DNA of 64,000 nt, from contig JAXLZT010000001.1 in assembly GCA_046350795.1 (NCBI GenBank), positions 181,780-245,779 of the forward strand, written 5' to 3'. Positions within the stretch are counted from its first letter, which is position 1, and each line of letters starts with the position of its first letter. Source of the stretch: Minisyncoccota bacterium (GTDB taxonomy: Bacteria; Patescibacteriota; Minisyncoccia; Phycocordibacterales; CALRHW01). Of this stretch, positions 6,854 to 57,964 are shown piece after piece. The translations under genes and the position numbers were made by a program. The notes under the pieces are model-generated. The model was not told the origin of the DNA, did no database searches, and saw nothing but the letters and a program-made list of their open reading frames with translations.

Positions 6854-6954
6854 TGTAGTAGATTCAGAGATGACGGGGTGCGGAGCGTTTCCAAACCCCT
6901 TTGCATGTATTCCGTGTCTTGCGCTTTGTTGCGCAAACTTCCGAAAGGCAAGCT

Positions 6955-7764
6955 ATGAACAAGCTCTTTGCAATGTTGTCTGTGGTGGCCGTCGCTGTGA
7001 CGGTCATCGTGCTTGGTGGTTGTGGTACCACACGCGAGGTCTACCTCGTGGATGGTCGGGAGTTCAGTGTTGAGGAGTTCAGGGCTTACCGTCTTGAGCA
7101 TCCCCACATCGCTACGCCGGTGGTCGTGGTCGAGAGGCCTGCATCGCCGGTGTACAACCCCCCCAGCTATCGCTGGAACGATGGATCGGTGCATGATGTG
7201 CCGGAGGTGAGTCTGGCAGATGAGATGGCAAAGATGAAGGATCGTGACCTCAATGGTCCCGGTGTCGACTACTTTGCGGAGACTGTCGTCGTGCAGTCAA
7301 ATGACGGCACCCCCGCAGGCGAGCTCACCTACATCGGCACTGGGCCAAACTTCATTCCGCCGGCGGGCATCGGCTCGGGCTTCAAGTACGTCATTGTGGT
7401 GCCTCGTGGCACTACGGTGGTGCGGGATGTCCGATTCTGTAATCCGCGTCGCCCCCACCTTTTGTCTGGTGTTGTGGGAGTTGGTGAATACCACTTCTAC
7501 GGCACCAACCATGACTACTGGGGACCGGATTGGGGTGGGGGTTACTCCTACTCCAGCCAGGCTCACTTCGGCGTCGGTGGTGGGATCTTGATTGAGTCTG
7601 GACTCAACGATTCGTACTACCGTAACAGGACTTTCTCATGGTCCTACCGCCAGAATGACAATTGCGACAACGATCGCAATGTCGGCGGCAATCGCCGTGG
7701 TGGTGGCCAAAATGGTCCCAGCAACAGCGGCATGCGCCGCTACGGCCCCATCTACAAGAAGTAG
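6955..7764 (+). CDS. Hypothetical lipoprotein (lipobox VLGGC), Gly/Asn/Arg-rich C-terminus; visibly GC-rich gene (foreign composition)
   Basis: Start at MNKLFAMLSVVAVAVTVIVLGGCGTT; GC3-rich codons (e.g. gtggtcgtggtcgagaggcctgcatcgccggtg) contrast with flanks; many overlapping spurious ORFs on other frames typical of GC-rich DNA. Confidence 0.6.
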   Translation: MNKLFAMLSVVAVAVTVIVLGGCGTTREVYLVDGREFSVEEFRAYRLEHPHIATPVVVVERPASPVYNPPSYRWNDGSVHDVPEVSLADEMAKMKDRDLNGPGVDYFAETVVVQSNDGTPAGELTYIGTGPNFIPPAGIGSGFKYVIVVPRGTTVVRDVRFCNPRRPHLLSGVVGVGEYHFYGTNHDYWGPDWGGGYSYSSQAHFGVGGGILIESGLNDSYYRNRTFSWSYRQNDNCDNDRNVGGNRRGGGQNGPSNSGMRRYGPIYKK

Positions 7765-7800
7765 GGGGATACAGAAAGACAGGGAGGAAAGACTCTCGTG

Positions 7801-7838
7801 GGCGCTGGTATCCGAAAGGAGACCAGCGCCTTTTCTTA
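7801..7838 (+). terminator. Rho-independent terminator (GGCGCTGGT...ACCAGCGCC + TTTTCTT)
   Basis: ggcgctggtatccgaaaggagaccagcgccttttctt immediately after lipoprotein stop. Confidence 0.7.
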
Positions 7839-7878
7839 TGCATTAATTTCCCATAAACTTTTGTGATAGTATGGTCGT

Positions 7879-8334
7879 ATGATGGTTACAAAAAGCCTTT
7901 TAGATACATATGCTCTTGCCTCAGATTTTGTAAATAATCTGTTAAAAATCTGTCAGATACCACCAGGAAAAGCGACAGTTGTTGGTCTATATGGTGATCT
8001 CGGCTCCGGCAAGACTGCTTTTGTGCAGGGTATGGCAAAAGCTCTGGGTGTGCACAATCAAGTAGTCAGTCCTACTTTTATATTACAAAAAAGATACGAG
8101 CTTGATCCAAAATTTCAACAGTGTTTTTTAAACTTAATTCATATAGATGCGTACAGGATGGAGTCGCCGGAAGAGCTGGCGCATATAAAATGGGAAGAGC
8201 TTTTAAAAGATCCACACAATCTGATTTGCATAGAATGGCCGGAAAGAGTTTATCAAGGAATGCCAACCGAGCACATACAAGTGGTGTGTACTTTTGTAGA
8301 TAAAGATATTCGTAAGTTTGATATTCATATGTAA
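7879..8334 (+). CDS. tsaE: tRNA threonylcarbamoyladenosine biosynthesis ATPase TsaE (YjeE)
   Basis: 151 aa; P-loop LYGDLGSGKTAFVQGMAKALGV...VSPTF typical of TsaE. Confidence 0.8.
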   Translation: MMVTKSLLDTYALASDFVNNLLKICQIPPGKATVVGLYGDLGSGKTAFVQGMAKALGVHNQVVSPTFILQKRYELDPKFQQCFLNLIHIDAYRMESPEELAHIKWEELLKDPHNLICIEWPERVYQGMPTEHIQVVCTFVDKDIRKFDIHM

Positions 8335-11560: not shown

Positions 11561-12217
11561 CTAGGGGGTGAATTTATGATGCCCCCAATCGTTGAAGCCA
11601 AGTTTGTAAATAAAGAACATGCTTCGGAATACGAAGCCAATCGCCACCGCCATGCTGTTGACCATGGCAACGATGCAGAAAGTAGCTAGTCCCACAACAC
11701 CCCCGTATGCGATACCGAGCACCACCCCCACAAACAGTGCTGAGAGGAACGAGAAGTACAGTGCTGTACTCGTGCTGGACAAGACGCCAGAGATCATGCA
11801 GATCAGTAGGAGCGATCCGAACAAAATCATGGTTCCAGGCTCGGAAACACCGTTTACAAATCCAGCAACGCTCCCAACAATCAAGCCAAACGCTACCGCG
11901 GCCAGAGTGGCACCTATCCAGTCTTCATTAGCAGCCCAATCGTTCTTTGAAGACAGGTGAATGATCCAGCTAAGCTGGAGTATGAACACCGGAAACAGGA
12001 GGATGTCAGAGAGGCGGGTGAGGTTGAATGGCCAGATTAGCTCGCCCCACACCCGAACGTTTTCTTTGCCCATTCCCACCACCTCCACCTTGTCACAGGA
12101 CAGCATGATGTTGGAGGAGTGTGGTACAGAGCCGGTGCACAGGCACCAGATTGTCCAGAATGCGCCAGCAACGGACGCAACGAAGAGCATCCAGATAAAA
12201 GTTGTACGAGGTCTCAA
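11561..12217 (-). CDS. Hypothetical polytopic membrane protein; GC-rich gene adjacent to tRNA-Lys 3' end
   Basis: 218 aa with multiple hydrophobic helices (…LAAVAFGLIVGSVAGFV…, …FVGVVLGIAYGGVVGLATFCIVAMV…); composition visibly GC-rich vs flanks. Confidence 0.5.
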   Translation of the reverse strand: MRPRTTFIWMLFVASVAGAFWTIWCLCTGSVPHSSNIMLSCDKVEVVGMGKENVRVWGELIWPFNLTRLSDILLFPVFILQLSWIIHLSSKNDWAANEDWIGATLAAVAFGLIVGSVAGFVNGVSEPGTMILFGSLLLICMISGVLSSTSTALYFSFLSALFVGVVLGIAYGGVVGLATFCIVAMVNSMAVAIGFVFRSMFFIYKLGFNDWGHHKFTP

Positions 12218-18482: not shown

Positions 18483-20054
18483 ATGATTCTTAAAAGATTC
18501 ATCTTTTCTTTTACGGTTTTTATTTTCTGTTGGATTTCTGTTACTTCTATCGCAAATGCTTCCGGAGAAGCTTGTTACACTTTTCCTAGAAACCTAAAGA
18601 TGACTGATAGGGGTATAGATGTTTGGTCATTACAAAAATTTTTAAATACAGATCCAAGGACACAGATTTCACAGTACGGGGTAGGATCTCCTGGTAAAGA
18701 AACAGACTACTTTGGACTACTTACCGCTAAAGCAGTCTCTAGGTTTCAAGAGCTTTATTCTAATGAGACACTTTTACCAGCCGGCCTTACGAGCGGAACT
18801 GGTTTTTTTGGTATAGCTTCTCGTTTGAAGGTTTTAAAAATATGTTTAGAGGGATTACTTGGTCAAGGTGCCGCACCCCTAGAGTCTACACAATTACCAG
18901 TAGCTCAAAACACCTCTATACCCACAGCGTCTTCTCAGAGTGTTACTTTAAATAAGGGTGGTTCTGTGAATGATTATGTAAATAAGTTCATAGTCTGGTA
19001 TCAAATTGCTGGTTCTATTCCTAGTACTCCAGAAAATAAATTAATCAGAGAGGTAGGATGGTTTCCTCCAACACCAGAATATTGGAATAATTTTGCGAAT
19101 AGAATTAAAAACAATGAAATGCAGATTGGTGTAAAGAGAATTGTTTTATGGAGCCCGTTTGGTTTTAGCTACGATAGCCCAGAGCCGATTCAATTTGATC
19201 AATACTTAAATGCACAAGTAGATACTCCATGGCTAGTTAATAATTTTGTAAATGCATGGAAACCGATTACTCAATCTGGCGTAGAAGTAATAGCTTATAT
19301 AGGCAGTCCTTATATAGATGAAAAACAAGTTGCTTTAATAAACAATCAAAGTGCGTGGTGGGATAGGGCATGGTCAGCAGTAAAACCATTTAAAGATGCT
19401 GGAATGTCTATTGCTTTTGATGCTGTTGTGGGACAGTCGGAGAGCTCTATGGACTATCAGCTTGCAGAAGCTTTGCGCAATCAGGGTGTGAAAGTGTATG
19501 TTGAGTCTAGACCGCGCTACAACCTTTCTCATTGGAATCAGTCTCATTACGGAGTATTTATTGATAACTATTTCTTTTACAGAAGTGATCCAGAAAGATA
19601 TGCGGATGCTAGCGTATGGCAGGCTGTAAAAAATTCTGATTTGAAAGGTGAGACTATTAGAATGGTCTTATATGAAAATGGACCAAATCTACCAAGCGAT
19701 GTGCCGAGTGATTATATTGGTCAGGCAAAAAGTGTTTTAAAGGATGGTGATTCAGTGGCTATTGGTGGTACTTTAGTAAATGCTTCTACTCCGCTTTCAT
19801 CTTTTTTACCAACTGGTGATTCTTATAAAATAATAACTCTGCAGGGCAGTGATCCTGATGGCGGAACACTCACTTTCTCCATTACAAGCAACCCGCAACA
19901 CGGCACACTCACTCAAACTGGAAGTGGTGGAAAAAAAGTTAAATATAAATTGACATCATCTTCTTTTGTTGGAACGGATTACTTTACATACACAGTAAGT
20001 GACGGGCTACATACCTCTCTACCAGCTACAGTATCTATACAAGTAAAAAATTAG
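18483..20054 (+). CDS. Secreted protein with N-terminal peptidoglycan-binding-like domain and C-terminal Ig/cadherin-like repeat
   Basis: Signal peptide; LQKFLNTD...GSPGKETDYFGLLTAKAVSRFQ (PG_binding_1-like, paralogous to 51311 gene); C-terminal TFSITSNPQHGTLTQ...TDYFTYTVSDG. Confidence 0.5.
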   Translation: MILKRFIFSFTVFIFCWISVTSIANASGEACYTFPRNLKMTDRGIDVWSLQKFLNTDPRTQISQYGVGSPGKETDYFGLLTAKAVSRFQELYSNETLLPAGLTSGTGFFGIASRLKVLKICLEGLLGQGAAPLESTQLPVAQNTSIPTASSQSVTLNKGGSVNDYVNKFIVWYQIAGSIPSTPENKLIREVGWFPPTPEYWNNFANRIKNNEMQIGVKRIVLWSPFGFSYDSPEPIQFDQYLNAQVDTPWLVNNFVNAWKPITQSGVEVIAYIGSPYIDEKQVALINNQSAWWDRAWSAVKPFKDAGMSIAFDAVVGQSESSMDYQLAEALRNQGVKVYVESRPRYNLSHWNQSHYGVFIDNYFFYRSDPERYADASVWQAVKNSDLKGETIRMVLYENGPNLPSDVPSDYIGQAKSVLKDGDSVAIGGTLVNASTPLSSFLPTGDSYKIITLQGSDPDGGTLTFSITSNPQHGTLTQTGSGGKKVKYKLTSSSFVGTDYFTYTVSDGLHTSLPATVSIQVKN

Positions 20055-20055
20055 T

Positions 20056-20127
20056 GCTCTCAGTAGGAATCGAACCTACATCGCAAGCTCCGCAAGCTCG
20101 CATTCTATCCATTGAACTATGAGAGCA
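20056..20127 (-). tRNA. tRNA, anticodon read as GCG (Arg) by hand-folding; isotype uncertain
   Basis: Acceptor GCTCTCA/TGAGAGC, T-arm GTAGG-TTCGATT-CCTAC; anticodon arm CGAGC-TTGCGGA-GCTTG contains a 9-bp tandem duplication (cgcaagctc x2 on + strand). Confidence 0.6.
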
Positions 20128-20760: not shown

Positions 20761-21195
20761 CTACTTCTCCGGAAGATCGTTCCACTCACCGATGGTCAAG
20801 CTGTGCTTGGGCATGGTGGTGAAGATGAGGTACTCAGCAAAGCTTGATGAGAAAAACTTGATCTCATCGGTCCCTTCGCTGAAGTCACAGCAGTTGTGGT
20901 CGTGATAGACCGTGCCCCTTGCCACGAAAGATGCTTTGTGGGTTTCTTTGCACCCCACCCAGACGAGTTCCATCTGGATCAGTGTGCAGTCTCCGGCCAT
21001 GAGATCCTTCTCCGTGCCCCCCACAACCCGAAACCCCGTGACCTCGTATGGGGGGAGCTCGGTGCAGATGGCTTTTTCTCCATCTGCCATCTTGCGTTCC
21101 TGGTTCTTCTTGGCGTGTTCCTTGCGGAACAGTTCGTTGGTCTCCTTGAGTAGGCCACTTTTTGTGGCCCCCTCTTTTGCGGTCTCTGTCGGCAT
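20761..21195 (-). CDS. Hypothetical protein, GC-rich gene
   Basis: 144 aa, no recognisable domain; GC3-rich; own terminator. Confidence 0.45.
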   Translation of the reverse strand: MPTETAKEGATKSGLLKETNELFRKEHAKKNQERKMADGEKAICTELPPYEVTGFRVVGGTEKDLMAGDCTLIQMELVWVGCKETHKASFVARGTVYHDHNCCDFSEGTDEIKFFSSSFAEYLIFTTMPKHSLTIGEWNDLPEK

Positions 21196-21325: not shown

Positions 21326-21580
21326 TTATGAAAGATGCTTTGAAACGAGCTTTGTCATTTCAAACATGTTTACAACACCCTTTCCTCCAAACACTGCCTT
21401 TAGGGCTGCGTCTGCGTTGATGTTTCTTTTGTTAGCTGAATCTTGAAGATTGTTCTTCTTGATGTATGCCCACAAAGCCTTTACAACCTCTGATCGAGGC
21501 ATTGGTCCTTTTCCCACAACAGCTGCCAATTCTGGACTTACGTTGAGGGGTTTCATAAATGCTGAATTTGGTTTTGCCAT
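21326..21580 (-). CDS. SWIB/MDM2-domain protein (stand-alone)
   Basis: 84 aa; MPRSEVVKALWAYIKKNNLQDSANKRNINADAALKAVFGGKGVVNMFEMTKLVSKHL closely matches SWIB consensus. Confidence 0.7.
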   Translation of the reverse strand: MAKPNSAFMKPLNVSPELAAVVGKGPMPRSEVVKALWAYIKKNNLQDSANKRNINADAALKAVFGGKGVVNMFEMTKLVSKHLS

Positions 21581-21728: not shown

Positions 21729-22328
21729 ATGAAAAACCAGTGTGTTTTTTATCAAGCAATTGAACTTGCCAACTGGACTCATCGTGAACAAAGGAGGAAG
21801 GTTACCAAAACACCATATGTGGTACACCCACTTCATGGCGTGACCATTCTTCTGACACACGGTGTGAGTTTGGATGATCCAGACGGACTCGACATCTTGG
21901 TTGCCGAGGTGTTGCACGACGGACCGGAGGACAATGTTGTGGATTGTCCCATCAGTCTCATCGAGAGTCTGTTTGGGCGAGAGGTGGCCAGGATTGTGAG
22001 CAATGTCACTCTGGACCACAAAAACCCAGACAAACAGCTGTCGCGTCAAAAGATCCTGGGTTTGGATTGGAAGACGCGTATCGTCAAGACTGCGGACGTG
22101 ATGAGCAACACCGTCTCAACGGTGTGCAACATCGAGAGGTTCGGCCTCAGGGAGGTGCTAAAGCACTCGAAAAAACCAATCGCCAGAAAGATTGCCATGG
22201 AGCGCGAATTCTTGTCTGGCGTGTGTCGAGAAGGAGATCCAGTAACCCTTATCCAATTGCAAAGGAGCGCATTGCGGTTTGTTGACAAGCTGGCAGAACT
22301 CACAAGCACAGCTCATGCCAACACCTGA
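21729..22328 (+). CDS. HD-domain phosphohydrolase resembling RelA/SpoT (p)ppGpp-hydrolase (small alarmone hydrolase-like); GC-rich gene
   Basis: HREQRRK...PYVVHPLHGVTILL...LVAEVLHDGPED matches H-x-x-Q-x-R / PYxxHPL / LHDxxED hydrolase motifs. Confidence 0.6.
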   Translation: MKNQCVFYQAIELANWTHREQRRKVTKTPYVVHPLHGVTILLTHGVSLDDPDGLDILVAEVLHDGPEDNVVDCPISLIESLFGREVARIVSNVTLDHKNPDKQLSRQKILGLDWKTRIVKTADVMSNTVSTVCNIERFGLREVLKHSKKPIARKIAMEREFLSGVCREGDPVTLIQLQRSALRFVDKLAELTSTAHANT

Positions 22329-22346
22329 TTTCGTTTCCGTGTTTTA

Positions 22347-22380
22347 CCGGCTTCCCCATGAAAAGGGAAGCCGTTTCTAT
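22347..22380 (+). terminator. Rho-independent terminator (CCGGCTTCCC-CATGAAAA-GGGAAGCCG + TTTCTATT)
   Basis: Read directly after HD gene. Confidence 0.7.
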
Positions 22381-22395
22381 TGTATAATTTAAACT

Positions 22396-22761
22396 ATGAA
22401 AAAATATAAAATAATTTTTTGGATTACTACGGCGGTGATTTTTTTGTTTGAGGGCGTGATGCCAGCGCTTACTTATCAATCAGAGATGTCCATACAAGGG
22501 ATTACAAGCTTGGGCTATCCTGTGTATTTCGTCACGTTACTCACTGTTTTCAAGGTTTTGGGATCACTCGTGCTTATTATTCCAATCATTCCGTCTCGCG
22601 TAAAAGAGTGGGCTTATGCCGGCTTTGCTTTTGATTTTATTTTCGCGCTTCTAAGTATGTGGATAGTGGTTGGCTTTGGTGTAATGTTGTTGCCTCCAGT
22701 AATAGCTTTGGTAGTGCTCTTGCTTTCATATGTTTCGTATCACAAGGTTATCTTAAAATAG
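22396..22761 (+). CDS. DoxX-like small membrane protein
   Basis: 121 aa, 4 TM helices. Confidence 0.45.
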   Translation: MKKYKIIFWITTAVIFLFEGVMPALTYQSEMSIQGITSLGYPVYFVTLLTVFKVLGSLVLIIPIIPSRVKEWAYAGFAFDFIFALLSMWIVVGFGVMLLPPVIALVVLLLSYVSYHKVILK

Positions 22762-22764
22762 TAG

Positions 22765-23277
22765 GTGATGTTTGTTGTTGTAAATGACAAAATGCAAAAG
22801 GGTTATCAGTACGAACTCTCTGAAAAGATGGGTGAAAATTTTGCGCCGGAATTTAAGCCAGACCTTACACCAAAAGAAATGCTTGAGATGGGCGTGTTTG
22901 GTGGGGTATATATGAGGGATTGTGTAGATGAGTTTCCGTCTGATTGGTTTGTAAAGGCAAAATTTGCACCAAAAGACACAAAAGAACACTTGGCCGAATT
23001 AAACTTTTTCAAAATAAACGCAAGTCAGCCACTGTCTGTCTGGAAAAAGAAGGGCTGGATTTATCATGAAGATCCGCGAGGGTGGTTTCAGTGGTATTGC
23101 CGGTATTATATGGGGCGCAGAATTTCAAAAGAGGATGAGAGGCAGATAAAAAGGTGGAAGGCTATCAGTAGACACATAGCTCAAGTGCAAAAAAACTGTC
23201 GCGCAGGCGATGCAATGTGCCGACCACGCCAACGTCAGGCGATACTACACTGGGCATATGATAGTAGAAGAGTTTAG
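22765..23277 (+). CDS. Hypothetical protein (Trp/Tyr-rich motif GWFQWYCRYYMGRR)
   Basis: 170 aa, no family recognised from memory. Confidence 0.4.
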   Translation: MMFVVVNDKMQKGYQYELSEKMGENFAPEFKPDLTPKEMLEMGVFGGVYMRDCVDEFPSDWFVKAKFAPKDTKEHLAELNFFKINASQPLSVWKKKGWIYHEDPRGWFQWYCRYYMGRRISKEDERQIKRWKAISRHIAQVQKNCRAGDAMCRPRQRQAILHWAYDSRRV

Positions 23278-23380
23278 GAGTAGGAAAAGCGATAGAAATA
23301 ATTGAATCTTGACCCCATTTCTCCGATGCCTTAGTCTAGGGACAGAATCTTTGACATCACCCCCCCACAAGGAGTAAAAA

Positions 23381-24490
23381 TTGAACACAAACAATGTTCC
23401 TACCATTTGCCTGACGGGTGGACCCTGTGCGGGCAAGACCACCATCCTTAGTCGTTTGCAAGAGAGGCTCGATGACCTTGGCTTTGCGGTGGTTGTGGTG
23501 CCTGAGGTGGCGACAGAGTTCATCTCTTCAGGCATCCGGCCTGCTTTGATCGAGCCACACCGCTTTCAGTGCCACATCCTTGAGCACATCATGGCCAAGG
23601 AAGATCGTTTCAAGGCGCTCGCTCAGATCATGTCTGTCGACAAGAAGGTCGTCATATGTGATCGAGGCGCAGTCGATGCTGCTGCATACATGTCGCCCAT
23701 GCATTTTGACTTGATGCTCGGCCAGCTTGGACTCACTGTCGTCGACTTGCGTGACGCTCGATACGACGGCGTGGTGTTCTTGCGTTCTGTTGCGGTGGAC
23801 GCTCCCCATATCTACACCTGCGATAACAACAAAGCTCGCAGGGAGTCAGTAGAGGAGGCTTGTTTGATCGACGAGTGTACGCTCGCTGCGTGGACTGGAC
23901 ATCCGCACTTGCGTGTCATCGACAACAGCACCGATCTCGAAGGCAAATCACATCGGGTACTTCAGGCGATTTGCAGAGTGCTCGGCATCCCCACACCCCT
24001 GGAGATTGAGAAAAAGTACCTGGTGAACCAGTGCGATCTCAGTCGTCTTCCGCTTCCTCATCGGTCTGTGGAAATCGAACAGTACTACCTCAAGACCGAA
24101 GACGGAAAGGGAGTGGAACGTATTCGTCGACGAAGTCAGTGTGGAGGCTTTACTTACTACCACACTGTGAAGCAGGATCTTCGCTCCGGTGTGCGTATTG
24201 AGAATGAAAGTCAGATCACCGAGGCCGAGTTCCTGATCCTCCTGCAAAGAGCAGATCCGGAGTTTGGCAAGATCGGAAAGACCCGGTACTGCTTTCTGTG
24301 GAACAATCAGTACTTTGAGCTCGACGTGTTCCACAACCCCTCCGGCCTGGTTCTGCTCGAGATCGAGCTCACGGAAGAGAACGACTTGGTCATCTTGCCA
24401 GACTTTCTCGTGGGCCATGTGATGGATGTAACTGGCAGCGATAGGTACAGCAATGTTCAAATCGCTCGTCGAATCGTAGCCGGGGTGTGA
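23381..24490 (+). CDS. P-loop nucleoside/nucleotide-kinase-like domain fused to C-terminal CYTH (triphosphate tunnel metalloenzyme) domain; GC-rich gene
   Basis: Walker A ICLTGGPCAGKTT (AAA_28/uridine-kinase-like) then EIEKKYLV...YYLKTEDGKGVERIRRR...LLEIELTEE (CYTH EIERKF-type start and acidic tunnel residues). Confidence 0.6.
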   Translation: MNTNNVPTICLTGGPCAGKTTILSRLQERLDDLGFAVVVVPEVATEFISSGIRPALIEPHRFQCHILEHIMAKEDRFKALAQIMSVDKKVVICDRGAVDAAAYMSPMHFDLMLGQLGLTVVDLRDARYDGVVFLRSVAVDAPHIYTCDNNKARRESVEEACLIDECTLAAWTGHPHLRVIDNSTDLEGKSHRVLQAICRVLGIPTPLEIEKKYLVNQCDLSRLPLPHRSVEIEQYYLKTEDGKGVERIRRRSQCGGFTYYHTVKQDLRSGVRIENESQITEAEFLILLQRADPEFGKIGKTRYCFLWNNQYFELDVFHNPSGLVLLEIELTEENDLVILPDFLVGHVMDVTGSDRYSNVQIARRIVAGV

Positions 24491-24516
24491 TGCTGTTCGT
24501 TCGCCAAATGAAACAA

Positions 24517-24549
24517 GGCCCGCGCTTCCTCAAGCGCGGGCCTTTTGCT
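24517..24549 (+). terminator. Rho-independent terminator (GGCCCGCGC-TTCCTCAA-GCGCGGGCC + TTTTGCT)
   Basis: Read directly. Confidence 0.7.
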
Positions 24550-24587
24550 GTGTAGTTCTCTTTAATAGGCTATATGTACACTCATAG

Positions 24588-24616
24588 CAAGAAAAAGGGC
24601 CGCCAGGTGGCGGCCC
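24588..24616 (-). terminator. Minus-strand terminator (GGGCCGCCAGGTGGCGGCCC hairpin, U-run on minus side) for the 24701-25219 gene
   Basis: Read directly; convergent with the preceding terminator. Confidence 0.6.
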
Positions 24617-24700
24617 TTTGGGGGGGGTGTGTGAACAGTAAATACAACTCTGCTCGTTCACCCAAAACGGTGTCGAGGACTTACTTCTCTTTTACAGCTA

Positions 24701-25219
24701 CTACTCCAGTGTGGCGAGAACGAGGTCGCGATCTGTCAGGACGCGATTCTTGATCTGCCTTGTGCCGTCTTCCTGCACGACGTAGGTCGTGACGTAGTAC
24801 TCGCGATAGGAGAGAGACACCCTCCTACCGTTGTACAGACTCCACTGATTGTAGAGCTGTGGACCGTTGAGGATGAGGTTGAACCCAGGTGCACGGAATG
24901 CTGTCGTGTACACCGGAGACCCCCTCGAGCTCTGTGGACCGTACTGGTGACGGTGGTTGTTCTCACGGTTGACTTCAGCCATGATGGGGAAAGGGAATGA
25001 CCTTACCCTCACCAACGGAAGCACGATCTCTCTCGGGTCATCAGCAGTCTCCACCGTTGCGACACAATTCATGGTGTCGGAGTGTTCATGCACGTAGAGC
25101 AGCTTCTCGCTGGGGAAGTACTTGTCGTTGATGAAGACCGTTCCACAGATCATGAACGTGGCGACCAGAGTGATGGCCATCGTGATTGCATGCGGGTTTC
25201 TCTCAGCCCAGTTGGGCAT
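24701..25219 (-). CDS. Hypothetical N-terminally membrane-anchored protein; GC-rich gene
   Basis: 172 aa; TM MAITLVATFMICGTVFI; no domain recognised. Confidence 0.45.
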   Translation of the reverse strand: MPNWAERNPHAITMAITLVATFMICGTVFINDKYFPSEKLLYVHEHSDTMNCVATVETADDPREIVLPLVRVRSFPFPIMAEVNRENNHRHQYGPQSSRGSPVYTTAFRAPGFNLILNGPQLYNQWSLYNGRRVSLSYREYYVTTYVVQEDGTRQIKNRVLTDRDLVLATLE

Positions 25220-25361
25220 TTTCTCTCCTTTCCGTAAGTGACTCTGCAGAAGAAAGCCTGAACGAGTGTCCAGGAGAACTTTCTAGACCTAATAATATCA
25301 TATTTAATGCGACAAGTCAAGTATGTGGAGCCTCGTAGAGGCTGTTAGAGCGTATTATAAC

Positions 25362-25757
25362 CTAGCTTTTGTAAGAATCCTCTGAAATGAATTCAAGACT
25401 ATTTCCGCTTGGATCTCTGAAATAGATGGATTGAATATTTTCTTCCCACGAAACTTCTTTTTCGATAGACACTCCGTTTTGTTTTAGTCGATCAGACCAG
25501 TAGGGAAATTCTTCATTTGGAATACCAAACGCTATGTGTCCTTGTCCAACAGAACCATGTACAGGAACAACACCTCCAGATATTTTTGTTTTTTCAGGAT
25601 TAAATAAAATAAGAACGCTGTCACCACAGCGTAAAAAAATATTTCTGCCAGGGGTTTCGTCTATTTTTTCAAAATTCAGGATTTCTGTGTAAAATTTTTC
25701 TGCTTTTTCAAGATCATCAACGTAAAGCGAAGTTTCTAAGATTTTTTTAATTTTCAT
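25362..25757 (-). CDS. Glyoxalase/bleomycin-resistance/VOC-family protein
   Basis: IKKILETSLYVDDLEKAEKFYTEILNF...HIAFGIPNEEF...FRDPSGNSLEF; start set at MKIKKI (ATG 25755-25757). Confidence 0.7.
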   Translation of the reverse strand: MKIKKILETSLYVDDLEKAEKFYTEILNFEKIDETPGRNIFLRCGDSVLILFNPEKTKISGGVVPVHGSVGQGHIAFGIPNEEFPYWSDRLKQNGVSIEKEVSWEENIQSIYFRDPSGNSLEFISEDSYKS

Positions 25758-25771
25758 ACGTTGATTATAAC

Positions 25772-25797
25772 AAAACCCGCAGTTTTGCGGGTTTTGT
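25772..25797 (-). terminator. Minus-strand terminator (AAAACCCGCA-GTTT-TGCGGGTTTT) ending the lexA-divergent small-protein operon
   Basis: Read directly. Confidence 0.6.
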
Positions 25798-25981
25798 CTC
25801 AAGCGGGGTAGATATCCTGAGGCTTGAACCGAAAGTACGGCTCAAATTCAAGGATATTGATCAAATTATACAGAAACTAAGGGTTGTCTACAAAGTCCAT
25901 CCCGAGTGATTTGAGGTGCTAAAACCTAAATCAACCAAAGGTAAAAATGTAGCGGATTATAGTATTTCTTAAGTCTGTGCA

Positions 25982-26314
25982 TTAATGAAACCAGTGCATC
26001 ACAATATCTATTGCCAAAATTGCTGTAGCGACAGCAGAGATGGTCGTTGCTACCATTATACACTTGGTTAAGCTTAGGGCCTTTTCAGTTAGCGACTCGG
26101 AAGATTTATTGAATTGATCTAATCTATAGTTTAAATCCGCTATTCGCTTAGTGAGATAACCAACCTGTGTTCCAATTTGACTTCGAGTGTTTGCAATCCC
26201 CGTTGTCATTAATTGCATGGCTCTCGTTAGGCCTTTCATACCACTTGGGGTAGCGCTCTCATGAGCTAAATCCCATTCTGACTTCTCTAACTCTGGAAAT
26301 TGGTTTGTACTCAT
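25982..26314 (-). CDS. Small tail-anchored membrane protein (paralog A), ~111 aa
   Basis: Start taken at MSTNQFPELEKSEWDL; C-terminal TM IMVATTISAVATAILAIDIVMHWFH; N-terminus paralogous to the next gene. Confidence 0.5.
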   Translation of the reverse strand: MSTNQFPELEKSEWDLAHESATPSGMKGLTRAMQLMTTGIANTRSQIGTQVGYLTKRIADLNYRLDQFNKSSESLTEKALSLTKCIMVATTISAVATAILAIDIVMHWFH

Positions 26315-26319
26315 GATTT

Positions 26320-26583
26320 TTATAAAGCTAAAATTATTTGAATAATAAGTCCTACAAGCATCGCTACTGTTAAACCGACAATACACCATGTAAGGCCAAC
26401 TAGTTTATCTGTTTGTTTAGAAGATTGATTATTGAAAGTTTCGATCGTTTCTTGTAGTTTGCTTAATGCACGTCTAGTTAATTCATCAGAAGCGAGTGAG
26501 CCGTAATGTGGGCTTGATTGATTTATCAATTGCCATAATTGTTTGTCTTCCGAATCTTCAAGTTTTGGAGAAAAATTAGTCAT
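26320..26583 (-). CDS. Small tail-anchored membrane protein (paralog B), 87 aa
   Basis: MTNFSPKLEDSEDKQLWQL...; C-terminal TM LVGLTWCIVGLTVAMLVGLIIQIILAL. Confidence 0.5.
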   Translation of the reverse strand: MTNFSPKLEDSEDKQLWQLINQSSPHYGSLASDELTRRALSKLQETIETFNNQSSKQTDKLVGLTWCIVGLTVAMLVGLIIQIILAL

Positions 26584-26600
26584 AATTTTATTAAGAGATG

Positions 26601-26819
26601 TTAGTCGTTTAGTTCTTTGCGTGCTAAGAGCATTATTTTCTTTCTTCCTTCGCTCGGACTTACTTTCTTTGCTGCATCGAATAACGCTTCTTTTATATTA
26701 GCCTTTGTTTTGTCTGGGAACTGTTTTTTCAATTGGTTTATTGCATAATAAACCTCATAGTTTTGCTTGAAGCTGATCAAGTTTTGATCCCCCTGTATTT
26801 TATTTTTACTGTCTGCCAT
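26601..26819 (-). CDS. Small basic hypothetical protein, 72 aa (first gene of lexA-divergent operon)
   Basis: MADSKNKIQGDQNLISFKQNYEVYYAINQLKKQFPDK... Confidence 0.45.
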   Translation of the reverse strand: MADSKNKIQGDQNLISFKQNYEVYYAINQLKKQFPDKTKANIKEALFDAAKKVSPSEGRKKIMLLARKELND

Positions 26820-26852
26820 TTTGATTAAAATTAGTTAATAATTAAACCTTGA

Positions 26853-26899
26853 AATCTGTGGATAAACCACTTGATTAGGTATTTGTAAGGCATTATACT
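26853..26899 (+). promoter_or_regulatory. lexA promoter TTGATT-N17-TATACT with overlapping inverted repeat AATCtGTGG-ATAAA-CCACttGATT (candidate LexA operator) in the lexA/small-protein divergent region
   Basis: -35 at 26871-26876, -10 at 26894-26899, ATG at 26906 (leaderless or near-leaderless); palindrome core GTGG-N5-CCAC at 26858-26870. Confidence 0.4.
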
Positions 26900-26905
26900 T
26901 TAGGT

Positions 26906-27532
26906 ATGGAAAATAAGTCAAGTCTTGGAATAGGCAAACCATCAAAGCGACAGGCCGAAATTCTACAATTCATTACGGAATTTAGGAAAAAGAAAGGATA
27001 TGCCCCCTCTCTTGCAGAAATTGCAGACAATTTTAGTGTATCTGTTCCAACTGTCCACCAACACGTCTCTTATCTAAAAAGAAAGAATTTACTTGCAACA
27101 GAGAAAGGTAAGAGGAGATCTATTCAAGCGATGAATATTAACAAAAGCGGCGTGATAGAAATACCGCTCATGGGTCTGATTGCCGCGGGTGGACCGATTG
27201 AGGCAATTCGGGACCCTCGGCCGATAGAAGTACCTCGTAACATGGTTTCTGTTGGCTCAAATTTCTATGCTCTTAAAGTAGCCGGCGCTAGTATGATCGA
27301 GGATGGTATTTTTGATGGCGACATTGTGATCGTAAAAGATCAACCCACGGTGGACGACGGAGAAAAAGCTGTTGCATACTTGCCCGATAAAGATGTGGTC
27401 ACTTTGAAAAGAATTTACCGCGACAAAAACCGAATCAAGTTAGTTCCTGCCAACAAAAGCATGAAGCCCTTTTACGAAACAAATATTGAAATACAAGGAA
27501 AGGTCGTTGGTGTTCTAAGGAAAGAAAATTAA
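26906..27532 (+). CDS. lexA: LexA repressor (wHTH + S24 peptidase)
   Basis: SKRQAEILQFITEFRKKKGYAPSLAEIADNFSVSVPTVHQHVSYLKRKNLL (LexA DNA-binding), VAGASM...KRIY (Ser/Lys dyad region). Confidence 0.85.
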   Translation: MENKSSLGIGKPSKRQAEILQFITEFRKKKGYAPSLAEIADNFSVSVPTVHQHVSYLKRKNLLATEKGKRRSIQAMNINKSGVIEIPLMGLIAAGGPIEAIRDPRPIEVPRNMVSVGSNFYALKVAGASMIEDGIFDGDIVIVKDQPTVDDGEKAVAYLPDKDVVTLKRIYRDKNRIKLVPANKSMKPFYETNIEIQGKVVGVLRKEN

Positions 27533-27544
27533 GTAATCGCTAGT

Positions 27545-29425
27545 ATGGCATCACAAATTCATGAAGAAATAAATAAATATCTATCAGCCAATGTGGGGGC
27601 TAATTTTGAATGCCTTGAAAGCGCATTAATTAGCGCAGTATTAAATACGTCCAAAAAATACAAAATAAAGAACGAAATAATAAATAAGGTAATTTCACTA
27701 GAAAGTTCCGATAGAGAAATTGCCTATAAATGGATAATCGAGAATATAAAAGAGCCGAGTATCGCACATGTTTTGATACTTTATGAGGTTTGTGTTTCTC
27801 CGGAAAATCGTAAGCTTGATGGTGCGTATTTTACTCCTGACAGTATTGTAGATGCTATCGTTGATTTGACGGTTGGGAATATGGTTGGTTCTATTTGTGA
27901 TCCAGCTTGTGGAAGCGGAGCTTTTTTGCTTGGATCACTAAAAAAACTTCTACTAAACAATGCAGGGTCAATAGATGAAGTGCTTTCTAAATATATATGG
28001 GGTATCGACATTAACGGTCAGAATGTTGAGCATTCTAAAAGAATACTTTCACTTTACGCTGTTCTTGAAGGTGTTGATAAAAAACACTTTGATATTGGGA
28101 TTTTTCAAGGTAACAGCTTAAATTTTTCATGGCAGAATACTCCGAGAAAAAAAGCAGAGTTTGATTTTATAGTCGGTAACCCCCCTTATGTCAGAGGTCG
28201 AAATTTAACTCCAAAACTAAAATCCCAGATCAAATCGTGGTCGTCTGCTAATGGTGGTATTGCAGATTTGTATATTCCTTTTTTCGAGATTGGCCTTACT
28301 TGGGCAGCAGATGATGGAAGGATTGGGTATATTACACCAAATACATACTTCTCATCAATTAATGGTCGTGGGGTCAGGAAAATGATCGTAGGTAAAAAAA
28401 TTCTTGAGAAAATTATTGATTTTGATGGATTTCCCGCATTTGAAGGCTTACTCACCTACACCTGTGTCACGATTCTTGATAAAAGCGGTGTGATCGAGCC
28501 GTTAATTGGAATGGCAAACTCCTTTAATCAACTCCAAGATATTCGGCGAATTAAACTTTCCAAAATAAATTATTCAGAACTTGAAAATAATGACTGGTAC
28601 ATACGTCCTCCAGATATAACACGTAACCTGCGAATGATGGAGAGGGTCGGTACACCACTAGACACTTACGTTCCTAAATTTACTACCGGCGTTGCAACCC
28701 TGCGAAATGACCTGTACATTTTTGATGGCCCAATAAAAAATGGATTTCTCTTTGTAGAAAGAGATGGAAAGCTTTTTAGAATTGAGGCAGATGCTACTGT
28801 GCCAATAATTAAACCAAACAAAATAAAGACAGAAGAGCAATTAAAGAAGAACTCGGAAAGAATTCTTTATCCCTATCGCTTCGTGTCTGGTCGTAAAAGA
28901 CCAGAACTTATACCGGAGGCTGAATTTAGTAAAAGTTTTCCAGGAGCTTACTCCTATTTACTACACTATCGAGCCGATTTAGAGAAACGTTCAATGGATA
29001 AGGGATCTGCTTGGTATGCTTTCGGTCGTTCGCAGGCACTTGATGGATTTGGTAAGAAAATTATTTTCCCAATGATGTCAGATCGTCCAGTTTTCTTACA
29101 TGTTACAGACCCAAATACTTTAATATACTGTGGATATGCACTTTATTCTGATTCAGAAGAAAAGACACAGATTTTACTGAAAATATTAAATTCTTCTGTC
29201 TTTTGGAATTATTTAGCGAATACCAGCAAGAATTATGCTAACGGATACAAGTCGCTAGCAAAAAATTATGTTAAAAAGTTTTCAATCCCCAAGTTTTCTA
29301 ATGTAGAAATTAAAAAATTGATGGCAATATCGGGAAATGATCTAGAATATTTCTTGAAAGAAAAATATTCTAACTCTATCGTGTCGCCCCAGATGCGTCA
29401 GGGGGAGCTACAACTTTTTTCCTAA
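27545..29425 (+). CDS. Gamma-class N6-adenine (Eco57I/TaqI-like) DNA methyltransferase, 626 aa
   Basis: Motif X YFTPDSIVDAIV, motif I DPACGSGAFLL, motif IV VGNPPYV in gamma order; long C-terminal TRD-like region. Confidence 0.75.
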   Translation: MASQIHEEINKYLSANVGANFECLESALISAVLNTSKKYKIKNEIINKVISLESSDREIAYKWIIENIKEPSIAHVLILYEVCVSPENRKLDGAYFTPDSIVDAIVDLTVGNMVGSICDPACGSGAFLLGSLKKLLLNNAGSIDEVLSKYIWGIDINGQNVEHSKRILSLYAVLEGVDKKHFDIGIFQGNSLNFSWQNTPRKKAEFDFIVGNPPYVRGRNLTPKLKSQIKSWSSANGGIADLYIPFFEIGLTWAADDGRIGYITPNTYFSSINGRGVRKMIVGKKILEKIIDFDGFPAFEGLLTYTCVTILDKSGVIEPLIGMANSFNQLQDIRRIKLSKINYSELENNDWYIRPPDITRNLRMMERVGTPLDTYVPKFTTGVATLRNDLYIFDGPIKNGFLFVERDGKLFRIEADATVPIIKPNKIKTEEQLKKNSERILYPYRFVSGRKRPELIPEAEFSKSFPGAYSYLLHYRADLEKRSMDKGSAWYAFGRSQALDGFGKKIIFPMMSDRPVFLHVTDPNTLIYCGYALYSDSEEKTQILLKILNSSVFWNYLANTSKNYANGYKSLAKNYVKKFSIPKFSNVEIKKLMAISGNDLEYFLKEKYSNSIVSPQMRQGELQLFS

Positions 29426-30080
29426 AAGCAGCAACGATATTATCAAAAAAGTTCTCTAGCTTTAGTTCTACTTGGCTTGGGAAAACATCCGAGAGTTCCG
29501 GTGGATTAGCATTAAAGTCAATAACACAATACGCAACATTTTCATATTTTGTAAGCTGAGTATCAGCTCGTCGAATTTTAAAGAATAGTTGGTTAGATGC
29601 AGCCTCATAGTTGAATGAGCCAACCGGCCCAACAGGTTTCTTTGTTGGTAAATCAGATAACGGATGCAGATACACCAATCCAACAGAGCAAGTTGGGAAT
29701 TGCTCGTGTATACTCTCAACTTCACCAGCTTTCATTCTAATGTAGTTATTAAAATTCTTGCCGATTGATGTCATCTGACTACGAACGTCCACGATTAATA
29801 CTGGTTCACCTCGCTCATTTAGAACACCAACATCAGCCTCAACTTTCGTGCCTTCGACTTTAAACTTGGCTTCTTTTTCTATTTTAAATCTAAGATCTTC
29901 AATACCGCGTTTACGTAGTTCATTTTCGCAATAATCTTGAAACAATGTAATAAAAGCTTTGCTTCTAACAGCTTTTGTTGGGTCTTTAATGAAAAGATCC
30001 CTCATTTTAATTAGGGTTTTAGTAAGTTCTGTGGTGTCGATAGCTATATTCTTATTTTGCTTCGGTTTTAACTTGGACAT
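29376..30080 (-). CDS. Putative type II restriction endonuclease partner (hypothetical)
   Basis: 234 aa, convergent with and overlapping the MTase 3' end by ~50 bp; no confident PD-(D/E)xK assignment by eye. Confidence 0.35.
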   Translation of the reverse strand: MSKLKPKQNKNIAIDTTELTKTLIKMRDLFIKDPTKAVRSKAFITLFQDYCENELRKRGIEDLRFKIEKEAKFKVEGTKVEADVGVLNERGEPVLIVDVRSQMTSIGKNFNNYIRMKAGEVESIHEQFPTCSVGLVYLHPLSDLPTKKPVGPVGSFNYEAASNQLFFKIRRADTQLTKYENVAYCVIDFNANPPELSDVFPSQVELKLENFFDNIVAAFRKKVVAPPDASGATR

Positions 30081-30081
30081 T

Positions 30082-30171
30082 TGGCGGAGGAGGTGAGATT
30101 CGAACTCACGGGACCCTTACGAGCCCTCTTGTTTTCAAGACAAGTGCATTCGACCACTCTGCCACTCCTCC
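30082..30171 (-). tRNA. tRNA-Ser (anticodon TGA), long variable arm, CCA encoded
   Basis: Acceptor GGAGGAG/CTCCTCC, anticodon loop CTTGAAA, variable arm AGGGCTCGTAAGGGTCCC; 90 nt. Confidence 0.8.
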
Positions 30172-52316: not shown

Positions 52317-52931
52317 ATGGATCGACTCGAAGCGCTTAAGGTGGTCTTGGAATACCTGACACAAGAAGTGCCAGAGCGGGATCTGCCCGTTGCAGATCTT
52401 ATCTTTGTGCACGGATACAACAACAGGATTGTCGCCGAGCATGCCGCGCATCTTTTCTGTATCGGCAAGGCGTCCCATGTTGTCGTGACGGGTGGTATTG
52501 GTCCCATGACCAGTCTGCCTTCCGGGTACGGATCAGAAGCTGAATACTTCAAGGACATTATGTGCTCTCGAGGCGTCCCAAAAGACGCTGTGGTCACAGA
52601 GTGTCGATCTACCAACACCAAGGAGAACGTGCTCTACGGTATCGATGAAGTCGATCGTTTCGGCATCACAATGAGAAGGATCATTGCCGTAGCGCTACCT
52701 CCTCTTTTGCGTAGATCCTTCGCGACCTTTCAGAAGCATGCCCCCAATTTGGAAGTCTTTGGTAGTGCACCGAGGATTCCAATAAGTGTCATGAGTCAAT
52801 CACAACAAATGAAAAGAATCTGTGGAGAGATAGACCGTCTGGAGCAGTACGCACTCAAGGGTGACATTGCTCCAACCGAGATTCCTCCTCACGTGAAAGA
52901 AGCACACCGTTTTCTCACCAGCCTTCCCTGA
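52317..52931 (+). CDS. DUF218 (YdcF/ElyC/SanA-like) domain protein; GC-rich gene with strong SD (AAGGAGGTG)
   Basis: DLIFVHGYNN...GKASHVVVTGGIG...GYGSEAEYFKDIMCSRGVPKDAVVTECRSTNTKENVLY matches DUF218. Confidence 0.6.
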   Translation: MDRLEALKVVLEYLTQEVPERDLPVADLIFVHGYNNRIVAEHAAHLFCIGKASHVVVTGGIGPMTSLPSGYGSEAEYFKDIMCSRGVPKDAVVTECRSTNTKENVLYGIDEVDRFGITMRRIIAVALPPLLRRSFATFQKHAPNLEVFGSAPRIPISVMSQSQQMKRICGEIDRLEQYALKGDIAPTEIPPHVKEAHRFLTSLP

Positions 52932-53544: not shown

Positions 53545-53973
53545 GTGCTAATTTGTTTTAAGCGCAAGACTTCTTGCAACTGTACCGGCAGTTCCGGCAC
53601 GATCTTTTTGCGAAAGGGCGCACTTATGCCTGCCATTGAAATATGTGACAATCGACTGTTTCTTGCGTTGCACAAACTGTGCGCGCGAGGGCTCGATGGG
53701 GAGATTGTGCGTGCCGATCTAGCCGCCTTCAATCGCCTCGATGTGAATCGAGCGGAGGAGCTGTTTGGTGAACGGCGTATCGTCGAGGGCAATCCTTGGC
53801 CGATGTATTCTGAACTCAAGTGGTTGTTTCAACACCTTGACGGACGTACTCGCTCCCTTTCCCAGCTCGAAGTCATCGCGGAAATGGAGTCCAAGGAGCT
53901 CAGGCTTCGTCTTTCCCCAAACAACAGGATCGTTTCGCACGACGGACTACACGTGCCAAAACGGCACGAGTAG
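53545..53973 (+). CDS. Hypothetical protein; GC-rich gene (start may be M at 53626)
   Basis: 142 aa; followed by hairpin terminator. Confidence 0.4.
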   Translation: MLICFKRKTSCNCTGSSGTIFLRKGALMPAIEICDNRLFLALHKLCARGLDGEIVRADLAAFNRLDVNRAEELFGERRIVEGNPWPMYSELKWLFQHLDGRTRSLSQLEVIAEMESKELRLRLSPNNRIVSHDGLHVPKRHE

Positions 53974-57361: not shown

Positions 57362-57964
57362 ATGGGAATTGATCATGAAGAAGACATGAGACGCCGGAGG
57401 GATCTCAAGAATCCTATGCATTTGTATGCATACTTGAGAAGTTTCGATGTTCCTACCACGACATGGGGTCGTGGTTCTGCAAAGACGTTTGATCATCTGC
57501 ACAGGGAAATCGTGGCAGGTGAGGCGTTTTTGGTAGAGGACGGCAAAATCCTTGTGCGTGAGATTCGGCTGGTCAAGGTGGCCGTCTTTTACAAAGCCGG
57601 GGACGGGAAGGTCTTGCAACTCTGTGAGGAGAAGCAGGTCTTTAAAAACGGACGAGTGCGTATTCGTGGCTTCAAATATATTGGTGAAAAGATGAAGCCG
57701 GGCGAGCACTCAGGTCTCGCTGCACTTCGCGCCATTGCCGAAGAGCTTGGTGTTGTCGAGGGGATTACACTTCTCGATCACAAGACGAGCAGTCCGTCAC
57801 CAGAGTTTTCAAAGTCCTACCCGGGACTGATGACTCGGATCGTCGAAGAGTCCTTTACAGTGTTTATGCCACACAACCTTTACAAGCCAGAGGGCTACAA
57901 GGAGGAACAAGAAGACAAGACGACTTACTTTGTGTGGCAAGAAGTCGAAACACCCCCGCAGTGA
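57362..57964 (+). CDS. Hypothetical protein; GC-rich gene
   Basis: 200 aa, no domain recognised. Confidence 0.4.
   Translation: MGIDHEEDMRRRRDLKNPMHLYAYLRSFDVPTTTWGRGSAKTFDHLHREIVAGEAFLVEDGKILVREIRLVKVAVFYKAGDGKVLQLCEEKQVFKNGRVRIRGFKYIGEKMKPGEHSGLAALRAIAEELGVVEGITLLDHKTSSPSPEFSKSYPGLMTRIVEESFTVFMPHNLYKPEGYKEEQEDKTTYFVWQEVETPPQ

Follow-up and report, generated by a model that had tools for sequence, protein, structure and literature searches.

A 64,000-nucleotide stretch of contig JAXLZT010000001.1 from a Minisyncoccota bacterium (hereafter the window) was analysed around two genes that lie on the same strand with 1,053 bp between them and encode a small RelA/SpoT-type HD hydrolase (21729-22328, plus strand, 199 amino acids) and a fusion of a P-loop kinase domain to a CYTH, or triphosphate tunnel, domain (23381-24490, plus strand, 369 amino acids). 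The reading that we favour, at a probability of about 0.6, is that these are two accessory enzymes of phosphorylated nucleotides which were acquired separately, namely a Mesh1-type hydrolase and a kinase fused to an active tunnel domain. The window fusion belongs to a large, widespread and uncharacterised AAA_28-CYTH family of bacteria and phages. An earlier note had described the open reading frames (ORFs) of this locus from the letters of the DNA; their order, with the HD gene followed by a DoxX_2 gene, a gene for a 170-amino-acid protein and the fusion gene, all on the plus strand, was borne out, and the gene order of the region was also found on two near-identical metagenome contigs.

The tunnel domain of the fusion protein

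The fusion ORF starts with TTG and is preceded by AGGAG 6 nt upstream. Its C-terminal part (24002-24490, residues 208-369) begins with EIEKK and had been taken for a CYTH domain, an assignment which profile, homologues and structure bore out although the Pfam CYTH model missed the window protein itself. A profile of 29 homologues matched NeuTTM (2fbl/3typ) over residues 208-363 (E 1.3e-16), Pfam CYTH matched 19 of the 29 fusion homologues, and the phage family phrog_6660 (157 amino acids) covered residues 207-365 (E 8e-16). The AlphaFold model of the fusion (predicted local distance difference test, pLDDT, 93.4; predicted template modelling score, pTM, 0.90) contained beta strands over residues 207-349 and a C-terminal helix (358-367). 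Foldseek comparison of this model returned NeuTTM (E 1e-11) followed by SaTTM, AtTTM3 and further tunnel enzymes. Because the family profile, the Pfam matches of the homologues, phrog_6660 and the model agree, the CYTH domain was regarded as established.

The alignment of the 29 sequences revealed 50 invariant columns over the full length of the fusion. In the ExExK motif (EIEKK, residues 208-212), E208 and E210 were invariant and K212 was present in at least 90% of the homologues. Further invariant residues of the tunnel were the basic R247, R249, R251, K264, K300 and R302 as well as Y236, E274, E313, D315, E327 and E329, with E276 nearly invariant. Tyr-28 and Lys-52, the proposed catalytic dyad of NeuTTM (PMC3440374), align with the invariant Y236 and K264. 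Class IV (CyaB-type) adenylyl cyclases carry the signature HFxxxxExExK, with HF four residues before ExExK (PMC8233210); this motif was not found in the fusion, which reads G-I-P-T-P-L-E-I-E-K-K with G202-I203 at the HF position. Thiamine triphosphatases carry WxRxR, the Trp of which stacks on the thiazolium ring (PMC8233210); this signature was likewise missing, as the fusion reads V-E-R247-I-R249 and has a non-aromatic residue at the Trp position (E246 or V245, depending on register). Since the catalytic residues are kept and both signatures are missing, the tunnel domain is predicted from its sequence to be a tri(poly)phosphate hydrolase, as opposed to a cyclase or a thiamine triphosphatase. 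It would hydrolyse a tri(poly)phosphate moiety in a metal-dependent manner, which is the most likely activity.

NeuTTM (NE1496) is the closest solved relative of the C-terminal domain, with 29-30% identity, and NeuTTM and CthTTM share with the fusion the ExExK motif, the basic residues of the tunnel, the ExE at the C-terminus and the proposed Tyr/Lys dyad. Both differ from the window protein in standing alone as inorganic triphosphatases of about 150 amino acids, whereas the window domain is placed behind a P-loop kinase and has an extra invariant arginine, R251.

The kinase domain of the fusion protein

The N-terminal domain (23381-24001, residues 1-207) had been described as a uridine-kinase or AAA_28-like P-loop. 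Only the second of these alternatives stood: residues 9-187 matched Pfam AAA_28 (E 2.7e-25), and no Pfam match to PRK/uridine kinase was found in the fusion protein. Among the profiles proposed earlier as a check, AAA_28 and HD_4 (34 bits for the HD protein) thus gave matches, and PRK and, on the window protein itself, CYTH did not. Other Pfam matches of the kinase domain were Thymidylate_kin, which was weaker, AAA_18 and KTI12. The P-loop reads GGPCAGKTT (residues 13-21), and the residues invariant in the 29 homologues comprised G13-G14-P15, G18-K19, E42 in a 'VPE' motif, D94-R95 and, in the LID, R153 and E155. The closest kinases by Foldseek were thymidylate kinases and dCK, with template modelling (TM) scores of 0.6-0.69 on the target. 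The domain would phosphorylate a hydroxyl group, most likely on a nucleoside-like or ribosyl compound that is salvaged. The whole protein would then be an AAA_28 domain rigidly joined to a predicted catalytically competent, NeuTTM-like tunnel hydrolase.

The ribosylnicotinamide kinase domain of NadR is the founding member of AAA_28. Besides this Pfam family, some relatives of the fusion share with NadR an N-terminal helix-turn-helix (HTH) domain, and some adjoin a transporter component, which recalls the uptake-and-trap logic of PnuC and NadR. The HTH-bearing relatives are two proteins of Clostridia (locus L011, 865-2196; locus L117, 520-1851) with the order HTH_3 (XRE-type), AAA_28, CYTH, a layout of regulator plus enzyme that resembles NadR. 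The fusion differs from NadR in having no nicotinamide mononucleotide (NMN) adenylyltransferase domain, and NadR structures were absent from its top sequence and Foldseek matches.

The HD hydrolase

The HD protein matched Pfam HD_4 (PF13328) with 34 bits against a cut-off of 27.2, and its best PDB matches were human and Drosophila MESH1 (E 3e-10, residues 8-127), followed by the bacterial small alarmone hydrolases (SAHs) 7qoe and 7qoc. The motifs HxxQxR, PYxxHPL and LHDxxED quoted in the earlier note were each found, as HREQRRK (residues 18-24), PYVVHPL (29-35) and LHDGPED (62-68). SAH hydrolases are defined by an Arg in HD1, a His in HD2, His-Asp in HD3, Glu-Asp in HD4, Asp plus Lys/Arg in HD5 and an Asn in HD6 (PMC9293644), and all six motifs were identified in the HD protein (R22/R23, H33, H63-D64, E67-D68, K120/D123 and N127). 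HD_4 was the sole Pfam match over the 199 residues, and the match to NCBIfam spoT_relA covered no more than profile positions 1-81 of 687; no synthetase or regulatory domain was found, in agreement with the earlier statement that a synthetase domain is lacking. At the level of sequence, HD_4, MESH1 and the six motifs together uphold the call of a small alarmone hydrolase.

An exhaustive HMMER search recovered 1,638 relatives at E<=1e-3, among which the clade of the window protein is small, with about 13 full-length close cluster representatives at E<1e-19. The window HD protein is a single HD_4 domain of about 200 amino acids with all six HD motifs, as are MESH1/HDDC3 and the bacterial SAHs (RelH of C. 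glutamicum, 7qoc/7qod; L. levettii, 7qoe). It differs from them in belonging to a small and divergent clade, in which LHDxPEDN occurs as a variant motif and the C-terminal half is distinct; other SAHs are only about 30-40% identical to it, over about 120 residues. The gene product would be a monocistronic Mesh1/SAH-type enzyme with a complete Mn2+ site and a Glu-Asp catalytic pair. It would strip the 3'-pyrophosphate (or 2'/3'-phosphate) from its substrate, most likely (p)ppGpp, (p)ppApp or an NADPH-like compound.

Composition and synteny of the two genes

Both genes had been reported as GC-rich, and this was confirmed: the HD gene has a GC content of 0.50 and a GC content at third codon positions (GC3) of 0.58, the fusion gene 0.54 and 0.63, against a window mean GC of 0.41 and a GC3 of 0.26-0.43 in the genes around the pair. 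Two further GC-rich neighbours, at 20761-21195 and 24701-25219, and five GC3-rich single genes elsewhere in the window had gone unmentioned. The view of the pair as the sole GC anomaly was rejected, as nine genes of the window exceed a GC3 of 0.53; GC-rich single genes occur across the window and thus characterise the genome at large, not this pair in particular. An intrinsic GC-richness of the fusion gene was also rejected, since in 80 other genomes the gene follows the GC content of its host (median difference +0.02, above +0.08 in only 5). The closest genome relative (L005, 63% identity) is non-syntenic and also shows a GC bump.

The region 12957-35964 of the window is collinear with a JGI contig (L085) at 62-94% amino-acid identity, and the two genes of interest fall into two intervals in which the sequences differ. 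Between the SWIB and DoxX genes, L085 carries Cupin_2, DUF948 and an 82-amino-acid gene, where the window has the HD gene. Between the gene of the 170-amino-acid protein (u170) and tRNA-Ser(tga), which bounds the variable slot in both sequences (30082-30171 in the window), L085 carries a TylF methyltransferase and DUF1653. The corresponding slot of the window (23278-30081) holds the fusion, a 172-amino-acid ORF, a glyoxalase, three small ORFs, a LexA/S24-like protein, an Eco57I-type methyltransferase and a 234-amino-acid ORF. The DoxX_2 membrane protein (22396-22761, plus strand; Pfam DoxX_2 E 4e-14, GC3 0.43) and u170 (22765-23277, plus strand; GC3 0.42) are 79% and 83% identical to their syntenic counterparts in L085. 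DoxX and u170 are thus a conserved resident pair between two variable slots and lie outside both acquisitions.

Directly 3' of the HD gene, a terminator-like hairpin with a T-tract (22348-22373, plus strand) consists of a 9-bp stem with 7 GC pairs followed by TTTCTATTGT, and it suggests that the HD gene is transcribed alone. The atypical GC3 and the absence of both genes at the same positions of L085 make the HD and fusion genes look horizontally acquired. The acquired module of the earlier note was therefore retained in part. Acquisition of each gene was supported by GC3 and by the positions in L085, and a single module was not, because separate slots flank the conserved pair of DoxX and u170 and a terminator-like hairpin of its own follows the HD gene; the contexts of the HD clade in other genomes, given below, also spoke against it. 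A low-GC, reduced genome of the Patescibacteria (Paceibacterota; candidate phyla radiation), an affiliation with which the gene content agrees, would have taken up the HD and fusion genes by separate transfers into neighbouring variable slots.

Searches for direct and inverted repeats revealed no convincing insertion scars around the genes. A 15-nt inverted repeat (23358-23372/24615-24629; CACCCCCCCACAAGG / CCTTTGGGGGGGGTG) with C7 and G8 runs brackets the fusion gene, its arms lying 9 nt before the start and about 125 nt past the stop; it may be an insertion scar or chance.

Distribution of the fusion family and comparison with plant TTM1/TTM2

The fusion architecture had been thought uncommon in bacteria, which proved incorrect. 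At E<=1e-3 more than 5,544 homologous proteins were found, and the fusion is encoded in at least 552 species-representative (GTDB) genomes and at least 565 metagenome stretches as well as, as full-length relatives, in 27 IMG/VR viral contigs. Among the 120 best matches listed, query coverage was 91-100%, with the exception of one truncated fragment. Collinear homologues with 44-66% identity extended over 96-100% of the query and thus over both domains. The genomes listed included Patescibacteria, Saccharibacteria, Ruminococcus albus and many other Clostridia, Bacteroidales, Eggerthellaceae, Deltaproteobacteria and one metagenome-assembled genome of Nanoarchaeia. The JGI label of the family is 'CYTH domain-containing protein/predicted ATPase'. 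In two viral contigs (L110, 5872-7114, and L111; 284 kb and 91 kb), CYTH and AAA_28 are separate adjacent genes in this reverse order, a naturally occurring arrangement in which the parts of the fusion are split and permuted. In a locus of Lachnospiraceae (L078), the fusion gene (6856-7950) lies in two frames (6856-7323 and 7327-7950), either as a frameshift pseudogene or by an assembly error.

The likeness to Arabidopsis TTM1/TTM2 drawn in the earlier note is confined to the order of the domains. The triphosphate tunnel metalloenzyme (TTM) 7z67 and the fusion share a kinase followed by a tunnel with tight interdomain contact, and Foldseek aligned them across both domains (E 1.4e-8). Kinase type, state of ExExK, tail anchor and geometry were found to differ. 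AtTTM1/2 have a kinase of the uridine-cytidine-kinase type, Gln where ExExK has glutamates, and a C-terminal membrane anchor (PMC9582702), and the catalytically incompetent plant tunnel has lost the ExExK glutamates and ExE (PMC9582702, PMC8233210). In contrast, the kinase of the fusion is AAA_28/thymidylate-kinase-like, E208/E210 and E327/E329 are retained as invariant residues, and the chain stops at residue 369, just past the last CYTH helix, with no tail anchor. Comparison of AtTTM1 (7z67) with the fusion gave 12% identity, a TM score of 0.28 and a root-mean-square deviation of 20.8 A, and the family profile had no sequence match to 7z67 at E<=1. The resemblance to the plant proteins is one of architecture, for which an independent fusion is the simplest explanation.

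Tandem proteins of kinase and TTM have been described as plant-only (PMC9582702), and in Aravind-group reviews (phage NAD/ADPr systems; jumbo phages) CYTH figures solely as triphosphatases of scattered occurrence. The literature on AAA_28 with CYTH, or SAH with CYTH, yielded no study of the fusion. Bacteria and phages have a very large conserved kinase-TTM family in which, unlike in plants, the catalytic residues of the tunnel are intact. Were its biochemical function assigned, thousands of genes of gut Firmicutes, Bacteroidales and Patescibacteria would gain an annotation. Taken as a whole, the bacterial kinase-TTM family makes a reasonable biochemical target; for the window itself the result is mainly a correction.

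Neighbours of the fusion genes

The neighbourhood of the fusion was surveyed in 187 loci (80 genomic, 80 metagenomic and 27 viral) with flanks of up to 8 kb, and all ORFs were searched with a hidden Markov model (HMM) of 121 SAH-family sequences. Linkage of the two gene types elsewhere, on which the earlier proposal depended, was found: a small SpoT-type HD_4 gene was located near the fusion in 6 of the 187 loci, within 1.6 kb in all cases. In L037, L058 and L155 it lay immediately upstream, in L078 one gene off, and in L117 and L011 0.65-1.5 kb downstream. These six genes form two subfamilies, neither of them that of the window, and those of L037 and L058 were placed by NCBIfam in the RelA/SpoT hydrolase family. 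In addition, a long RelA/SpoT homologue lies 3.6 kb from the fusion in L157. All six small HD_4 genes are at most 2 kb from the fusion, a zone that makes up 35% of the sampled flank (binomial p = 0.0018 by locus; 0.015-0.04 for 3-4 independent lineages). Generic clustering had given nine HD loci, three of which were rejected as HTH-only proteins chained via an HTH-HD fusion, leaving six. Single-sequence tblastn with the HD protein and the other local genes gave zero matches in the 80 fusion loci searched, and only the SAH-profile HMM found the HD_4 neighbours. The association between HD_4 and the fusion is genuine, though weak and seldom seen, and does not extend to the window HD clade. A functional connection between SpoT-type HD hydrolases and the fusion family is possible.

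No widely conserved partner of the fusion family emerged from the 187 loci. The most frequent neighbour was an energy-coupling factor (ECF) transporter S component, which was adjacent and co-directional in 12 loci of Clostridia and scored under the cut-offs of the riboflavin/folate models (L036, 9096-9659; L046, 7093-7719; L066, 7057-7752; and nine further loci). Likewise adjacent and co-directional were Cytidylate_kin2 in 5 loci of Bacteroidales, ADP-ribosylglycohydrolase in 4 loci including viral L089, a Macro domain in 3, and RNA 2'-phosphotransferase KptA in 2 including viral L088. Examples of these NAD/ADP-ribose genes, which directly adjoin the fusion gene, are found at L088 7189-7773, L089 7148-7927, L058 6177-7148 and L078 3054-5094, where L088 and L089 are large viral contigs and the others genomes of Lachnospiraceae. 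The neighbours fit a role in nucleoside/ribosyl salvage or housecleaning that is linked to NAD/ADP-ribose chemistry, and the ECF-S, SpoT-type HD and ADP-ribose neighbours give testable hypotheses for the substrate of the fusion.

A broader interpretation, which we regard as rather unlikely, is that the fusion forms the core of an unrecognised mobile pathway of bacteria and large phages that processes a polyphosphorylated ribonucleotide derived from ADP-ribose, NAD(P) or alarmones. If so, its variable partners would be SpoT-type HD, ADP-ribosylglycohydrolase, Macro, KptA and a dedicated ECF uptake component; the pathway would serve the salvage of imported ribosylated compounds or counter nucleotide-based immunity or toxins, and the window would be one of several loci with an independently recruited HD partner.

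Alternative readings

The position of the two genes on one strand about 1 kb apart invites their interpretation as one co-selected module turning over (p)ppGpp/(p)ppApp or related polyphosphorylated nucleotides. In such a module, for example, the tunnel would trim the 5'-triphosphate, the HD enzyme remove the 3'-pyrophosphate and the kinase recycle the product. The non-random proximity of the six HD_4 genes of two other subfamilies, as compared with the outer flanks, agrees with a module, and CYTH-HD fusions are on record according to a passage of PMC8233210 that cites Iyer and Aravind. It is nevertheless an improbable account: the two genes occupy separate variable slots around a resident pair, the HD gene ends in a terminator-like hairpin, 181 of the 187 fusion loci have no HD_4 neighbour, and relatives of the window HD clade have no AAA_28/CYTH neighbour. 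The 64-kb window holds no second HD_4 gene, and no alarmone synthetase turned up in it, although no search dedicated to synthetases was made. The idea that the fusion is instead a defence or anti-defence gene acting on NAD+/ADP-ribose-derived or signalling nucleotides, carried as phage or island cargo with HD as a second cargo gene, draws on its 27 full-length viral relatives, some on contigs of 268-467 kb. Several viral copies lie within about 1 kb of a contig end beside recombinase-like ORFs, as judged from reading the sequence. Seven loci, the viral L088 and L089 among them, have a neighbour of the ADP-ribosylglycohydrolase, Macro or KptA type, CYTH and AAA_28 are split and permuted in the viral L110/L111, both proteins have PHROG families, and the fusion is a GC-atypical single-gene island next to a tRNA. 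Against this, PADLOC (PADLOC-DB v2) gave no match for HD, DoxX, u170, u172, u144 or u153, so that the earlier suggestion of an anti-defence relation found no defence-system match among these local genes, and for the fusion only a P-loop-level match to VakA (E 0.009). The most frequent neighbour, present in 12 loci, is a transporter component of the ECF vitamin type, which is indicative of salvage; the majority of loci lie in ordinary chromosomal surroundings that show no conserved partner, and the cyclase signature is missing. A conflict function is for these reasons still less probable. Least credible to us is a tunnel that acts as a ligand-sensing regulator gating the kinase, as in Arabidopsis TTM1, and not as a pathway hydrolase. 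The pTM of 0.90 indicates that the two domains are fixed relative to each other, both can be aligned to 7z67 by Foldseek without a change of order, and the AtTTM1 tunnel packs into the acceptor site of the kinase, which it has been proposed to regulate (PMC9582702). In AtTTM1, P-loop and tunnel are about 16 A apart. However, AtTTM1/2 have lost the ExExK glutamates, whereas the fusion family keeps metal-binding and catalytic residues invariant across phyla, which argues for catalysis; in addition, the interdomain geometry departs from that of 7z67 by the values given above, and phages can encode the two domains in separate genes.

Several points weigh against the reading of two separately acquired enzymes of phosphorylated nucleotides. 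The fusion family is biochemically uncharacterised, and every assignment of a substrate, like any coupling of the two domains or cooperation with the HD enzyme, is one that we infer. The residue E42 of the kinase is presumably comparable to the PE-Glu general base of dCK/dNK, which would imply a hydroxyl acceptor; this likeness served as a lead only. Pfam CYTH (PF01928) had no match to the isolated C-terminal 169 residues even at E<=10; this reflects the sensitivity of a single-sequence search and is not counter-evidence. The HD_4 match spans only profile positions 1-75 of 156. Adjacency of HD_4 and the fusion is rare (3%) and concerns HD subfamilies other than that of the window, and no AAA_28 or CYTH gene was found near the window HD clade in four other contexts. 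The neighbour calls were made by ORF clustering with seed BLAST and HMMs, and the counts are lower bounds. Finally, accessory genes 1 kb apart could still be co-selected despite separate insertion.

Other features of the window

The resident protein u170 had no match in Pfam, NCBIfam, PHROG, PADLOC or PDB, and its mediocre AF2 model (pLDDT 73) had no fold match in the PDB. More than 8000 homologues were found, the best 120 at 71-96% identity, with about 70 invariant columns, e.g. WFQWYCRYYMGRR and RPRQRQAxLHWAYD. In relatives, u170 always lies 3' of a small membrane protein, which is DoxX_2 in the window and L085 and TspO_MBR in L086, L087 and L184.

The fusion gene is convergent with the 172-amino-acid ORF (u172; 24701-25219, minus strand; GC3 0.73), which has a hydrophobic N-terminal segment and had no match in any family library. 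Between them lie two GC-rich hairpins (24515-24544, 13 bp; 24594-24619, 11 bp) that are terminator-like on the minus strand, and a weaker hairpin is located 3' of the fusion gene (24534-24553, plus strand). Further along this variable slot, next to tRNA-Ser, are the genes for the LexA/S24-like protein (26906-27532) and the Eco57I/N6_Mtase-type methyltransferase (27545-29425; PADLOC MTase_II, E 3e-110).

On its other side, the HD gene is flanked by the SWIB gene (21326-21580, minus strand), followed by a 144-amino-acid ORF (u144; 20761-21195, minus strand; GC3 0.72). This ORF is 32% identical to a 128-amino-acid gene at the same position of L085, where the flanking genes are 73-94% identical, and it looks like a replacement by a distant homologue. 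The gene of a Big_9 surface protein (18483-20054) is an insertion relative to L085 and adjoins tRNA-Arg (20054-20126).

Apart from the HD and fusion genes, seven single-gene islands with a GC3 of 0.53-0.73 are present, two beside the pair (20761-21195 and 24701-25219) and five elsewhere (6901-7764, 11561-12217, 52317-52931, 53545-53973 and 57362-57964), the other genes of the window having a GC3 of about 0.25-0.45. Among the islands, one encodes a DUF218 protein, one gives a weak NUDIX match and four are ORFs without a family. This scatter suggests frequent acquisitions of one gene at a time from donors of higher GC content.

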